Assembly: GCA_021399395.1 (NCBI GenBank)
Contig: JAAFKJ010000146.1
Location: forward strand, 1 to 33,693
Length of the DNA stretch: 33,693 nucleotides
DNA from: Candidatus Heimdallarchaeota archaeon
Lineage (GTDB): Archaea; Asgardarchaeota; Heimdallarchaeia; Heimdallarchaeales; Heimdallarchaeaceae
Reading direction: 5' to 3'
Each line of letters starts with the position of its first letter. Positions within the stretch are counted from its first letter, which is position 1. The translations under genes and the position numbers were made by a program. Under the pieces are notes generated by a model. It was not told where the DNA came from. It ran no database searches and saw only the letters and a program-made list of their open reading frames with translations. Below, one piece after another: positions 24,031 through 31,137 of this stretch.

Positions 24031-25454
24031 GAAAAATGAGTAAAGAAGAGGAATTTCAAAACGAGGAACTTCAAAAAATACAGAATTATCTTAAAGATTC
24101 CCAGAAAAACATTGAAAGGATGAAAAAAGGTAAGAAACCTAGAAGGAAATTTAGGTTCATCGTAAAGGAAAATAAGCTTCTTTTCACATTAATTTCACTT
24201 ATGCTTCTCACTGGTCCTTTTTTCTCACTAATTCAGAATCAAACACCTCCAGAAGTCGTATATCCATACAGTGATGCAATTGCAAATACATTGGATACTC
24301 TGGATTCGAACTTTACAACTGAAGCTGGATTTCCAGTTCATGAGACAGTATCTGAAAATACAAGTTCGGAGTTAATTATCTTATATTCACTGGTAAACTC
24401 TATGTTGATTGATTGTGATCTATTAGCAAAAGAAGAACATGTACTACAGAAAATATCATACATATTTCAAATAATCGAGAATGGTACTTTTAGAGATTTC
24501 AATGAAATTACTACTAAACTTCCAGTTTTTTACCAGTTTCTAGGAATATATACACTTATGCAAGCATATTATATTCTACAAAATACCTCTTATGCATTCA
24601 CTTTCAACCTTATTGATAATGTTATTAATTCAACTATAACTGACTTTGTGCGATATGATATATGGCCGTATTTCTATACGGTATCAGAGGGTACAAATAC
24701 AACGATTTTAGCTGACCAATCTCTTGCAGTAGCTGTTCTAGCTACTTATATGCTGCTAACAGGCATCCAGGAAGTTTTTGGTTGGGATCTTAAAGAGGTA
24801 ACAGAAAGCTTGGTAGATAGGATAGAAAGCCGCTTCTATATTTCCATCTCAAAATCATTTTACCATCAATATGAAATGGATACACATATTGGTTCAGGAT
24901 TATCAACGTGCCAAGATTTAGTGTTCACTTCATTTGGTTTATCAAGAATGGAGAAGTATTCAGCAAGTCACACTTTTCCTATTAGTAGTTCAAGTGTTCA
25001 TCAAAAAGTAATAAATGAACTAGTTGATTTAAATTGGTTAGTTCATGAAACTGATAGAATAGACTCAATTATTCTGATTGAGAACCAAGCATATTTTTCG
25101 ATGATATCCTACCTTTTGAACCTAAAAAACGTAGGTGTAGAAATTCAAAATGCAACTGCAACTTATTTCTATATGGCAGATGGATTCATTGCAGACAAAA
25201 TTGATTCAACAATAACCGCTGAGTCATGTTTGTATGGTTTGATGACCATACTAGTGTCAGATTGGGGTACTATTCAGAATGGTAGGGAATATAATAGCGA
25301 ACCACGACCAACCCCAACAGAGACAGGATATGAACCATCAAATAGTATCAATATTACAATCGTGTTTCTTACAGTTCTAGTATACACTGTTATTTCCAGA
25401 ATAATTGTGAGATTTAGAAAACGAAAAACAATTGGTGACCAGGCCGAGATTTGA
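24027..25454 (+). CDS. Membrane-anchored extracellular helical protein with N- and C-terminal TM segments
   Basis: ATGA overlap with the ATPase stop. Basic N-region and TM, helical body with NxT sequons, P/T linker (PRPTPTET), TM and RFRKRK. Vague (alpha/alpha)-barrel-like pattern, unconfirmed. Confidence 0.75.
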   Translation: MRKMSKEEEFQNEELQKIQNYLKDSQKNIERMKKGKKPRRKFRFIVKENKLLFTLISLMLLTGPFFSLIQNQTPPEVVYPYSDAIANTLDTLDSNFTTEAGFPVHETVSENTSSELIILYSLVNSMLIDCDLLAKEEHVLQKISYIFQIIENGTFRDFNEITTKLPVFYQFLGIYTLMQAYYILQNTSYAFTFNLIDNVINSTITDFVRYDIWPYFYTVSEGTNTTILADQSLAVAVLATYMLLTGIQEVFGWDLKEVTESLVDRIESRFYISISKSFYHQYEMDTHIGSGLSTCQDLVFTSFGLSRMEKYSASHTFPISSSSVHQKVINELVDLNWLVHETDRIDSIILIENQAYFSMISYLLNLKNVGVEIQNATATYFYMADGFIADKIDSTITAESCLYGLMTILVSDWGTIQNGREYNSEPRPTPTETGYEPSNSINITIVFLTVLVYTVISRIIVRFRKRKTIGDQAEI

Positions 25455-25539
25455 ACTCGGGGTCACATGCATGATAGCTTGGAGGAAGCATCCTAGCAAG
25501 TCCCCAAGCATGTATCATACCAAGCTTGACTACCTGGTC
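25433..25539 (-). tRNA. tRNA-Pro(GGG) with 30-nt intron and encoded CCA
   Basis: Acceptor stem GACCAGG/CCTGGTC-A-CCA, D arm GTCA..TGAT, anticodon stem CATGC/GCATG with loop TT-GGG-G|T, T arm CCGAG-TTCAAAT-CTCGG. Confidence 0.93.
25472..25501 (-). other. tRNA intron at canonical position 37/38 (BHB type)
   Basis: ACTTGCTAGGATGCTTCCTCCAAGCTATCA forms CTTG/CAAG and AGGA/TCCT stems. Central helix UUGG/CUAU flanked by 3-nt bulges. Confidence 0.85.
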
Positions 25540-28914: not shown

Positions 28915-29892
28915 TTATTTTTTCTTAAGATTTATGTAATTACTTAGTCTTTTGACAGGTTCTTCCATATTCGAATCTGCATAGAAGTGAAAGATTCCAT
29001 CTTTATTTGTAAAAGCTGAACAATCTCCTTTGTTGTTCATAGAAAGAATATGTAACACTCCTTCTTCTTTTATTTTCATTAAATCTGTAATTCCAGATCG
29101 TGTTGATTCGTCAAGAGGAAGTTTTCTCTCATATCTGTCAACTACTAATCTTGCAGTTGATAATCTTATAGCTAATTCTCCTGTTCCTGTACATGCTGCA
29201 CCAACTGTTTCAGAACAGTATATACCAGCTCCAAATAAAGGTGAATCACCAACTCTTCCAGGAAATTTCATAGCTAATCCTGAAGTTGAAACTCCGACTG
29301 CCAAATTATTATGTTTATCTAGTGCAATAACATTAGTTGTTCCATGTTTATCAAAACTTAGTTTTCTGTACCAATCTTTTACAGCGTATTTTTCCATAAC
29401 TTCCTTAAGATGATCATCAAATCTCATAAAAAGTTCTCTCACCAAAGTTTGAGCTTCTTGAGGCATTTCTAAACTTTTTCCTTCTATAATATTGTGGTAA
29501 TTTTTGATACCTAACTCATCAATAATATCTTCTTCAATAAAACCTAATGCACGTGCAAATTTCTCTGCTCCTTCTCCAACTAACATGACATGAGGAGAAA
29601 TTTCCATAACTTTCCGTGCAATACTTATAGGATGACGAAAATTTCTTACTGCTGCTATAGATCCAGCTTGTCTGGTTTTCCCATCCATAATTGAAGCATC
29701 CAGCTCTACTGTGCCAAGGAGATTAGGAAACCCATTAAAGCCCACTGTTATATCATAGGGGTTATTTTCGATTAATTTAATGCTCTCCTCAACAGCATCT
29801 AAAGCACTACCACCTTCTCTAAGAATCTTTAAACCAGCTGGTAAACCTACATCAGCGTTACGTGTACCACAAATTGCATAATCAAATTGCAT
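28915..29892 (-). CDS. Ntn-hydrolase: glycosylasparaginase / isoaspartyl peptidase family
   Basis: GGSALDAVE, VELDASIMDG, HPISIAR, HVMLVGEGA, HG-T nucleophile, STSG..KFPGRVGDSP, TGTGE motifs. Confidence 0.93.
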   Translation of the reverse strand: MQFDYAICGTRNADVGLPAGLKILREGGSALDAVEESIKLIENNPYDITVGFNGFPNLLGTVELDASIMDGKTRQAGSIAAVRNFRHPISIARKVMEISPHVMLVGEGAEKFARALGFIEEDIIDELGIKNYHNIIEGKSLEMPQEAQTLVRELFMRFDDHLKEVMEKYAVKDWYRKLSFDKHGTTNVIALDKHNNLAVGVSTSGLAMKFPGRVGDSPLFGAGIYCSETVGAACTGTGELAIRLSTARLVVDRYERKLPLDESTRSGITDLMKIKEEGVLHILSMNNKGDCSAFTNKDGIFHFYADSNMEEPVKRLSNYINLKKK

Positions 29893-29950
29893 TTATGTAA
29901 GAAAAAAATTAGAGTATAAAAAATGTACTCCATGAATTTTTTTGTCATAC

Positions 29951-30262
29951 AGTCATGTTGTGGGTGTTTTATAGAGGTCCTCATAAGATCTGGAAGATGA
30001 CTGGCTTGCAGTCTACACTCACTCTAAGGGACAATTCACGTGTCCTCCTACCCCGTTCACCATACGTTTAAGTATAGCTTTCGGATCGCTTGTTAGTTCC
30101 TCATTCATAGATGGGAGTATAGGAATGGATTCCATTTCTCTTGTACCTTGACCACAATCTATGGTGGGATGTGGTCGGCAAAGTCTACACGAGCGGTAAA
30201 CCCTGTTCCTATACTTTACAACTGTTTGTTCTATATAAACCCAACAAAAATGTAACATGACT
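29951..30262. ncRNA. Candidate ~310-nt structured non-coding RNA, family unassigned
   Basis: About 42% GC by manual count versus AT-rich flanks. Ends pair (AGTCATGTT/AACATGACT). Internal helices AGTATAGGAA/TTCCTATACT, GACCAC/GTGGTC, GACTG/CAGTC, GGACA/TGTCC. TATA-like boxes on both sides. Confidence 0.6.
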
Positions 30263-30357
30263 AGAAAACAGAATTACTTTATAAACACTAATAAAAACAA
30301 GTGAATTGTTGATTACAAAAAAATATCTTTAAGAATGCTTCCGGTAGAACCATCTTA

Positions 30358-31137
30358 ATGTCAGAATTAATGGTAGAATCAAAACAGCTTACGAAATATT
30401 TTAATTCACTTCTGGCTGTTGATAAAATTGATTTAAAAATACCAAAAGGCAAGATTTATGCTCTTCTGGGTCCAAATGGAGCTGGAAAAACAACAACTAT
30501 TCGTATGCTCTTAGGTCTTCTTAAACCTACATCTGGAGAGGTAATTGTAAATGGGGTGAATGTTTCAGTTGAACCTAAATCTATCAGAGGAGAAATTGGT
30601 ATACTTCCCCAGTTTTCAGCTGCATATTATGATCTAACTCCTATGCAAAATATCAATTTCATTCTTGAATTGAATAACATTCCTTATGATGAGGTGAAGG
30701 CTGCTTTAGGAGAATACTTCAAGACGTTGGATATCTCCTATGAATTGCTTAATAAACCATTTTCAAAGTTATCCGGAGGGGAACAAAGATCCATCAGTTT
30801 TATTATGGCTGCAATAACAAATAAGGAGTTCTTAATCCTCGATGAACCAACCTCGGGTTTGGACATTGCACGGGCTAAATATATTCGATCAATCATCAAA
30901 TACCTGGTTGAACAACAAGGAAAAACTGTCCTCCTATCTTCGCACATAGTGTCTGATTTAGAAGAACTTGCAGATTATTGTGGGATTTTGAAGAAAGGCA
31001 AATTAATCTTTCAAGGTAGAAAGGAGGAAATTATTAATGAATATGCTCCCGATTCTCAAGATTTTGAGGATGCAATTGTGAATGCCTTTGGTGCAAAAAC
31101 GAACATAGCTCAAACTTTTATGGGGGGAAGTAAATGA
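30358..31137 (+). CDS. ABC-2 type exporter ATP-binding subunit
   Basis: GPNGAGKTT, LSGGE, LILDEPTSGLD, SSH motifs. Confidence 0.95.
   Translation: MSELMVESKQLTKYFNSLLAVDKIDLKIPKGKIYALLGPNGAGKTTTIRMLLGLLKPTSGEVIVNGVNVSVEPKSIRGEIGILPQFSAAYYDLTPMQNINFILELNNIPYDEVKAALGEYFKTLDISYELLNKPFSKLSGGEQRSISFIMAAITNKEFLILDEPTSGLDIARAKYIRSIIKYLVEQQGKTVLLSSHIVSDLEELADYCGILKKGKLIFQGRKEEIINEYAPDSQDFEDAIVNAFGAKTNIAQTFMGGSK

Follow-up and report, generated by a model that had tools for sequence, protein, structure and literature searches.

What kind of sequence lies between the asparaginase gene and the ABC-transporter gene of a Candidatus Heimdallarchaeota archaeon, on contig JAAFKJ010000146.1 of assembly GCA_021399395.1? 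The original prediction for this contig stretch (33,693 nt, referred to here as the window) described positions 29951-30262 as a highly structured intergenic RNA candidate, and offered four readings: a new large non-coding RNA (ncRNA), a very divergent housekeeping RNA, a leader of the asparaginase or ABC-exporter gene, or the RNA of a non-autonomous element. The last of these is the right one. The true unit is wider than predicted, spanning 29932-30280, and it is an insertion that belongs to a family that has moved. It is almost certainly a transposon derivative. On the minus strand, it is probably a tnpB-less derivative of an IS200/IS605-type (IS1341-like, tnpB-only) element, similar to the palindrome-associated transposable elements (PATEs) and producing a promoter-driven guide RNA that acts in trans. 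The element is therefore a known kind of selfish DNA, ordinary in kind, and not a new housekeeping RNA.

The insertion is evident from comparison of the element's own genome (G000; 2.8 Mb, 201 contigs, 81.8% complete) with a set of 25 genomes from the same genus (72-92% complete). The flanking genes, confirmed by Pfam as Asparaginase_2 and ABC_tran, are 13-116 nt apart in seven congeners, as against ~390-470 nt in the window. In alignments with the empty sites of G001 and G017, homology ends exactly at 29931 and resumes near 30318, and the window junctions read ...TTTAT/ and /GGAGTA (slash marking the junction). The element is inserted between the divergent promoters of the two genes, whose TATA-like boxes are conserved in relatives; the boxes originally listed at 29914-29921 and 30278-30285 are both present. 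On the side of the left end (LE), the pre-insertion sequence cannot be rebuilt, because the intergenic spacer differs between species.

The same limits recur in copies from the own genome and from congeners (detected with BLAST and nhmmer), and are common to seven copies of the A-type, the right-end (RE) subtype to which the window element belongs. Two other RE subtypes are linked to tnpB. Congeners with copies of the same extent are G001 (89% and 83% identity), G011 and G013 (76%), and G018 (75%). The four A-type copies of G000 and G001 occupy four non-orthologous loci with unrelated flanks and are 83-91% identical, while orthologous flanking genes are ~80% identical, which is below the values for the element copies. 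Since the copies are more alike than the orthologous genes beside the window copy, the family was active or constrained recently. No target-site duplication was found at any copy read, and the 3' flanks are not conserved. The original prediction had named a miniature inverted-repeat transposable element (MITE), with many copies and target-site duplications, as the alternative to a functional ncRNA; the many copies are there, but the duplications are not.

Searching the own genome with window positions 29893-30357 gave 27 BLAST matches at E <= 1e-3, and an nhmmer profile of the RE module recovered 35 copies or fragments. A multi-copy sequence of this sort is not the unique new ncRNA that had been proposed. 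The closest copy (91% identical, contig C174) covers window 29932-30284; four or five others are ~75% identical over 140-230 nt; and ~20 copies comprise an 80-nt core (window 30011-30091), many of them close to contig ends. This core is what connects the element to tnpB. In 13 of the 15 copies examined, the core lies, in the minus-strand sense of the window, inside an open reading frame (ORF) ending ...INADVNAAYNILVKSDPKA..VNGVGGYVMYP.., and in seven of those 13 the frame is at least 419 aa long. Two full tnpB ORFs, of 436 and 437 aa, both match PF07282 and PF01385; the former also matches NF040570 guided_TnpB (RNA-guided endonuclease TnpB) with 144.9 bits (cut-off 100), and is the one of the two that was scanned with this model. 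There are 22 TnpB matches in the genome, 14 of them over the cut-off. That the copies are assembly artefacts, or that the full-length ORF is something other than TnpB, was checked in each case and is not true. The closest public relatives of these TnpBs come almost throughout from metagenome-assembled genomes of Candidatus Heimdallarchaeota, with one from a Thorarchaeota bin, which agrees with the Asgard affiliation implied in the original prediction. A further relative (L059; 77% identity) is found on a 2.8-kb contig in a bin labelled Cloacimonadota, probably through a binning error or transfer.

The RE module is common to the window element and the full-length tnpB copies. In the latter, the tnpB ORF stops ~15 nt from the right end of the element (an estimate from the ORF stop and the RE end), and its last ~50 codons therefore coincide with the stretch of the omega RNA (also called reRNA), the guide RNA of TnpB systems. 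At L011:294-1604 (C131) and L012:625-1938 (C15), the ORF reads through nearly the whole scaffold, so that the last ~50 TnpB residues are encoded by RNA-constrained sequence; the three subtypes end the protein differently. Eight tnpB-less elements follow a single plan, consisting of a left end of ~100 nt, a module of ~125 nt, and an RE module of 160 nt, and a profile of the hairpin module likewise finds eight copies in the own genome. For five of the six short copies compared, the LE matches the 100 nt preceding the tnpB ATG. The window subtype has only the LE motif and the TATA box in common with the LE of full-length copies.

An identical TATA box is located 26 nt ahead of the tnpB ATG in full-length copies, and transcription of the short element is therefore predicted to start at ~30205-30213, just ahead of the conserved hairpin. 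The tetranucleotide TTAT precedes the LE in 7/7 A-type copies and in 2/2 metagenome copies, and TTAT or TWAT precedes the LE of full-length copies as well, which suggests that it may act as a transposon-adjacent motif (TAM). The element begins and ends with ATGA..TTTGTCATNTAGTCAT at one end and ATGACAAAAA..TCAT at the other. The terminal piece of the 3' half, ...ACATGAC..ATGACAAAAA..TCAT, is common to the other two RE subtypes. The RE also holds an inverted copy of the LE TATA-box region (window 29966-29977, GTTTTATAGAGG on the plus strand). This is also seen at the RE of another subtype, and might act as an antisense promoter directed inwards, across the omega scaffold.

Most of what the original prediction reported about composition and folding holds. 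The GC content of 29951-30262 is 42.3%, compared with 33.4% for the whole window, in line with the ~42% given. The predicted fold of the region is more stable than those of dinucleotide shuffles (100 per strand): the plus strand folds at -89.3 kcal/mol (z -2.40, equalled by 1/100 shuffles) and the minus strand at -88.1 kcal/mol (z -2.81, 0/100). The 10-bp base of the irregular hairpin at 30116-30215 pairs AGTATAGGAA (30116-30125) with TTCCTATACT (30206-30215), and in its cap GACCAC (30150-30155) pairs with GTGGTC (30171-30176). This hairpin corresponds to the conserved module at 30127-30203 plus a 10-bp base specific to the window's subtype. The small hairpins at 29999-30013 and 30029-30045, the minus-strand motif CCG-AAA-[GCTATAC/GTATGGT]-GAA-CGG, and the direct repeat AGTCTACAC at 30010 and 30182 were all found where described. 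The long closing helix was seen correctly as pairing and is a genuine imperfect inverted repeat (29940-29959 with 30254-30273; 20 nt, 75% complementary in a repeat search). It joins the ends of the transposon, and is probably not part of any RNA because its left arm is upstream of the predicted transcription start.

Conservation of structure was assessed in an alignment of 46 natural scaffold sequences, from short and full-length elements of the own genome and its relatives, with 500 shuffles and slid alignments as controls. Across the scaffold hairpins, 94.6% of cells are paired (slid controls <= 50%), and changes on both sides are seen at 7 of the 17 pairs (70 cells in all), a result matched by 0/500 shuffles. 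The first two helices, which form hairpin 1, are 96.2% and 91.9% paired, with five of seven inner pairs changing on both sides. Helix 3, in hairpin 2, is 96.4% paired, and two of its six pairs do so; the full-length copies use this stretch to encode the TnpB residues ...NGVGGYVMYP.... The original prediction held that G-U pairs do not settle the strand. In the family alignment they do: one scaffold pair is GU in 30 sequences and another UG in 45, and because these would be mismatches on the plus strand, the folding strand is the minus strand of the window, which is the tnpB sense. For the extended hairpin, RNAalifold on 12 short elements gave 22 pairs, five of which changed on both sides. Covariation supports three hairpins. 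The long-range stem CAGUCAU/AUGACUG is kept in the fold of nine A-type sequences (outer pair CG:3, UA:3). A single consensus fold of the whole RE module fails in the 3' half, since this part cannot be aligned across the three subtypes.

The scaffold is not the only piece of tnpB that the short elements have kept. Their hairpin module aligns with a tnpB segment encoding G..NLVTFVDNLGNQPIV[IV]KDHGKGIKSI, just past the RuvC-I aspartate, and a profile search places it at the same position in 6/6 tnpB genes (best E 0.003, in a 13-kb database). The cap hairpin, whose tnpB counterpart consists of the codons for VDNLGNQPIV[IV], reads GAYAAC-C-TCGG...CCGA-TT-GTTRTC in tnpB and GACCAC-C-TCCC...GGGA-TT-GTGGTC in short elements. 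In an alignment of 45 sequences from both contexts (13 short modules and 32 tnpB segments; mean column identity 74%), 95.7% of cells are paired and 7/10 pairs change on both sides, a level reached by 0/500 shuffles and by slid alignments only up to 56%. In some cases neither of the two compensating changes alters the amino acid, as where Leu CTC/CTT covaries with Pro CCG/CCA. This codon pair shows at least nine state changes on a 32-row tree, and the combination C-A never occurs; an independent-pairs sign test of it, underpowered with three well-supported pairs, gave a median p of 0.5.

The coding sequence itself carries a similar signal. Along 15 intact tnpB genes, synonymous-codon entropy has a background of ~1.0-1.4 bits and two dips, one over codons 186-210 (0.46-0.68) and one over codons 386-416 (0.0-0.62). 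These two low-entropy stretches are the same two pieces of tnpB that the tnpB-less elements retain. The short copies amount to a natural deletion experiment, in which a 1.3-kb gene has been reduced to its 3' omega region and a stretch of ~80 nt after RuvC-I. The retained segments suggest that tnpB contains an RNA element acting in cis or in trans. A stronger proposal is that the mid-tnpB hairpin is a functional nucleic-acid module of the TnpB family and that the short elements are guide-only satellites using the TnpB of other copies, which we regard as doubtful. If it were true, the hairpin could be a second part of the guide RNA, distal to the first, or a signal for processing or loading, or the handle of some other mobilisation machinery, in a genus in which no TnpA was found. 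Of the whole tnpB gene, the satellites would then retain just the two pieces that function as RNA, controlled by the promoter of the element, and the window's RE subtype would be a lineage surviving solely as satellites. No description of this Heimdallarchaeota family, or of a conserved hairpin inside tnpB, was found in the literature searched, which was of limited coverage.

How such an element might persist can be outlined from known TnpB systems, where the guide is the DNA just beyond the RE, as stated in the part of the preprint by Meers et al. (PMC10055086) drawn on here. The LE promoter would drive a minus-strand RNA of ~300 nt, comprising the hairpin module, the omega scaffold, and a guide derived from the flank. 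From its position, this guide portion would be 29912-29931, a flank that overlaps the TATA region of the asparaginase gene. The RNA would be loaded in trans by TnpB from full-length copies, the complex would cut the vacant site (TTAT plus flank), and repair from the filled copy would then keep the element in place. Whether the element makes such a trans-acting omega RNA is, in our estimate, evenly balanced.

A number of observations weigh against a working PATE-like element. Judged by eye from the alignment rows, the window copy is slightly degraded: two of the four inner pairs of the cap hairpin are disrupted, and hairpin 2 has a C-U at one pair. Its mid-scaffold sequence differs from that of the two tnpB-linked subtypes, so that the resident TnpBs may not recognise it. 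No tnpB is associated with the window's RE subtype at any of 13 loci, 11 of them in 9/25 genus genomes and two on metagenome contigs (a pattern search of metagenomes had three matches, two being tnpB-less copies and one an unrelated chance match). The Y1 transposase TnpA (PF01797) was detected in 0/25 genus genomes and not in the own genome, as against 6/14 named genomes used as a control; classical IS200/IS605 movement is therefore not available as far as is visible. The element ends are inverted repeats of 75-86% complementarity (20 nt and 75% in the window, 30 nt and 77% and 21 nt and 86% in two full copies), unlike those of classical IS200/IS605 elements, and the local palindromes visible by eye near the ends are small ones (ATGA...TCAT). 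The resident TnpBs carry Ser where Cas12f has its Zn-ribbon Cys, as in L012:625-1938 (C15) and 14 relatives (YTSKSSFLD... / ...FTSAQG..NAD). Finally, no RNA run covering the locus was found.

Further observations concern the resident proteins. The RuvC D, E, and D motifs of the TnpBs are present by eye. A single TnpB sequence had no relative in the PDB at E <= 0.001, and a 15-sequence profile matched Cas12f / OrfB_Zn_ribbon chains weakly (E ~6e-5), over the C-terminal 80 residues. The association of TnpB with further kinds of transposase, among them Asgard Cas1, is a subject of PMC10691335; no Cas1 (PF01867) was found in the own genome. The same genome has four serine recombinases (PF00239), and nothing ties them to the element. 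On contig C28 the arrangement is IS607-like: behind the gene for a 199-aa serine recombinase (L053:1312-1960) come GGGTTTATATAG, a promoter-like motif that the window element also has, and a long ORF starting at 1961.

Several of these observations would also be expected of an inert relic, that is, a decaying and functionless deletion product of a TnpB transposon whose structure is inherited from the ancestral omega RNA. The broken pairs, the lack of tnpB at 13/13 loci of the window's RE subtype, and the lack of an RNA run covering the locus all fit this explanation, as do the plainly degenerate deletion products that exist at C197 and at C174:92.0-92.5 kb. What makes it rather unlikely is the pattern of conservation. 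Identity among the copies at four non-orthologous loci of two species is 83-91%, where the orthologous genes beside the window copy reach ~80%; compensatory changes keep the pairing in tnpB-less copies, which are free of coding constraint; and the TATA box is kept in 8/8 short copies. The hairpins might instead be single-stranded DNA signals for transposition by another transposase, which is improbable as an alternative to RNA and would be compatible with an RNA role. IS200/IS605 elements do transpose in the form of single-stranded DNA, with hairpins close to the ends serving for recognition, as described in the part of PMC3119063 considered here; the motif TTTGTCATNTWGKCAT occurs inverted at both ends, sense at the LE and antisense at the RE, at 21 genome sites, giving inverted repeats of 20-30 nt and explaining the closing helix seen earlier; and T-G mispairs are tolerated solely on the top strand. 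Nevertheless, the hairpins with the best support are internal, 100-250 nt into the element and not next to the cleavage sites, both scaffold hairpins are placed as are the omega RNA scaffolds of characterised TnpB systems, and no Y1 transposase was found in the 25 genus genomes.

By contrast, very little speaks for a new housekeeping-type ncRNA, a divergent RNase P or SRP (signal recognition particle) RNA, or a leader of the flanking genes. Such an RNA was suggested by a length of ~310 nt, a strong predicted structure, and an intergenic position between the Asparaginase_2 and ABC_tran genes, and archaeal RNase P and SRP RNAs are indeed comparable in length and degree of predicted structure. 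The genome has its own matches to both families on other contigs: RNase P RNA (RF00373) at C55:26514-26837, with 165.3 bits (cut-off 84), and SRP RNA (RF01857) at C129:7838-8145, with 95.7 bits. The latter is slightly below the Rfam gathering score of 96.5, so default annotation would miss it. For the element, cmscan gives no match to either family, and its sequence is multi-copy. The seven congeners without the element nevertheless keep both genes and their promoter-like boxes, which disposes of a leader. Copy number and empty sites together rule out this group of explanations, whose remaining probability is very small. Slighter still is the case for a protein. The minus-strand ORF at 30019-30258 does run from ATG to stop over 79 codons, and its C-terminus resembles the TnpB tail (74% BLASTP identity to TnpB residues 387-409), a resemblance confined to the last 23 residues. 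It has no Pfam or NCBIfam match, its ATG is upstream of the conserved TATA box, and the frame is full length in one of seven copies, the others having 59, 18, or 27-32 aa or less. With a frame this poorly conserved, a protein product is ruled out, and we give it practically no weight.

The cmscan search proposed with the original prediction matched no known Rfam family. Within 29932-30280 there was no match at E <= 10 (search of 29800-30450), and at gathering score the sole match in the whole window was a tRNA outside the element. A weak SNORD73 match at 30357-30410 (E 8.9; 16.4 bits against a 42-bit cut-off) also lies outside it, and the weak matches as a whole (SNORD73, GIR1, mir-981), across the window, the region, and six related loci, are at chance level. 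No curated model exists for this omega RNA, which accounts for the absence of a match; the absence does not signify a new RNA class.

Among known systems, the closest are the PATEs, haloarchaeal elements derived from IS605/IS1341-type transposons (Dyall-Smith et al. 2011, PMC3119063). As characterised in the portion of that study used here, PATEs originated by core deletion, and their mobility without an intact TnpA was a puzzle. The window element resembles them in being too short for a protein (349 bp), in having ends related to those of tnpB-bearing elements, in lacking a target-site duplication, in having a short conserved oligonucleotide at the 5' end only, in its strain- or species-specific insertions, and in its origin by internal deletion. 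It differs in its host, which is Heimdallarchaeota-type and not haloarchaeal; in its ends, which form an imperfect inverted repeat of 20-30 nt, whereas PATEs are defined there as lacking inverted terminal repeats; in keeping a second, internal tnpB segment, the hairpin; and in its RE subtype, for which none of the loci seen offers a partner with tnpB. According to the portion of the Meers et al. preprint used here (PMC10055086), PATEs often encode omega RNAs that need TnpB made elsewhere, in trans.

A comparison with TnpB omega RNAs gives a similar picture. In full-length copies a homologous module occupies the 3' end of tnpB, where it overlaps the ORF and extends as far as the RE; the scaffold is structured, covaries, and is on the tnpB-sense strand; a guide is expected from the flank; and TTAT adjoins the LE. 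The differences are that the element matches no Rfam or other model, that the tnpB ORF spans almost the whole scaffold, that the short elements add an upstream hairpin from mid-tnpB, and that no Y1 TnpA was found in the genus; the omega RNA of the window element is a predicted one. Circular omega RNAs have been reported in archaea, according to the excerpt consulted of PMC12558985. Like MITEs, the element is small, non-coding, and multi-copy, needs proteins made elsewhere, and has ends resembling inverted repeats. Unlike them, it has no target-site duplication, its flank motif is conserved on one side only, and its internal sequence is homologous to the gene of the parent element, a contrast also drawn in the consulted part of the haloarchaeal study (PMC3119063).

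For annotation, the result removes one false candidate for a new large ncRNA, and similar candidates in Asgard genomes can be recognised by checking for a TnpB C-terminal tail and for multiple copies. For the study of mobilisation, the family provides a clean case of the puzzle raised for haloarchaea in 2011 (PMC3119063): its elements, tnpB-only as well as tnpB-less, are insertion-polymorphic, and no Y1 transposase was found in the genus. Specialist interest lies in the retained internal tnpB hairpin and in this transposase-free, insertion-polymorphic setting. The parts of the element are collected in Table 1.

Table 1. Features of the window element and its immediate flanks (window coordinates)
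Feature	Position	Strand	Remarks
Whole tnpB-less element, 349 bp	29932-30280	-	LE starts at 30280; RE stops at 29932 with ...TTCAT
Flank TTAT (TTTAT with 30285)	30281-30284	-	Putative target or transposon-adjacent motif, 5' of LE
Archaeal TATA box TTTATATA in LE	30232-30239	-	Conserved in 8/8 short elements
Extended irregular hairpin module	30127-30203	-	Short elements only
Cap hairpin GACCAC...GTGGTC	30150-30176	-	Homologous to a hairpin within the tnpB coding region
Short linker	Between extended hairpin and scaffold hairpin 1	-	
Omega-scaffold hairpin 1, CCG-AAA-stem-loop-stem-GAA-CGG	30052-30085	-	Covariation
Omega-scaffold hairpin 2, GGACAC...TGTCC	30029-30045	-	Invariant GGGGTAGGAGG just before
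Subtype-specific 3' scaffold half	29932-30028	-	Stem CAGUCAU (30003-29997) / AUGACUG (29956-29950)
Flank after RE, GGAGTACATTTTTTATACTC (minus strand)	29912-29931	-	Predicted guide of read-through omega RNA; position only
79-aa ORF	30019-30258	-	Not a gene; TnpB C-terminal tail remnant in the last 23 residues

Other members of the family vary this plan. Two independent deletion derivatives in G000, at C197:6174-6643 and C174:91990-92545, have the LE and the RE module 200-300 nt apart and keep remnants of the TnpB N-terminus. A shorter variant occupies one orthologous locus in three species (L033, L034, and L035, in G009, G013, and G014), and joins the window-type RE and core to an unrelated left part of ~115 nt, which starts with TTTAT followed directly by CATGAACC. 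On a metagenome contig (L082:~850-1320), a window-type short element preceded by TTAT is located directly after a putative tRNA 3' end (...CCGCACCA).

The assembly of the locus was compared with DNA contigs from four runs, and no joint was visible across 29600-30600. This interval is spanned whole by a single contig in two runs of one study, which is possibly the source sample and hence not independent. Elsewhere in the window, the tRNA match at 25436-25539 (minus strand, 51.4 bits) aligns model positions 1-71 over 104 nt of DNA, which suggests an intron-containing archaeal tRNA gene.

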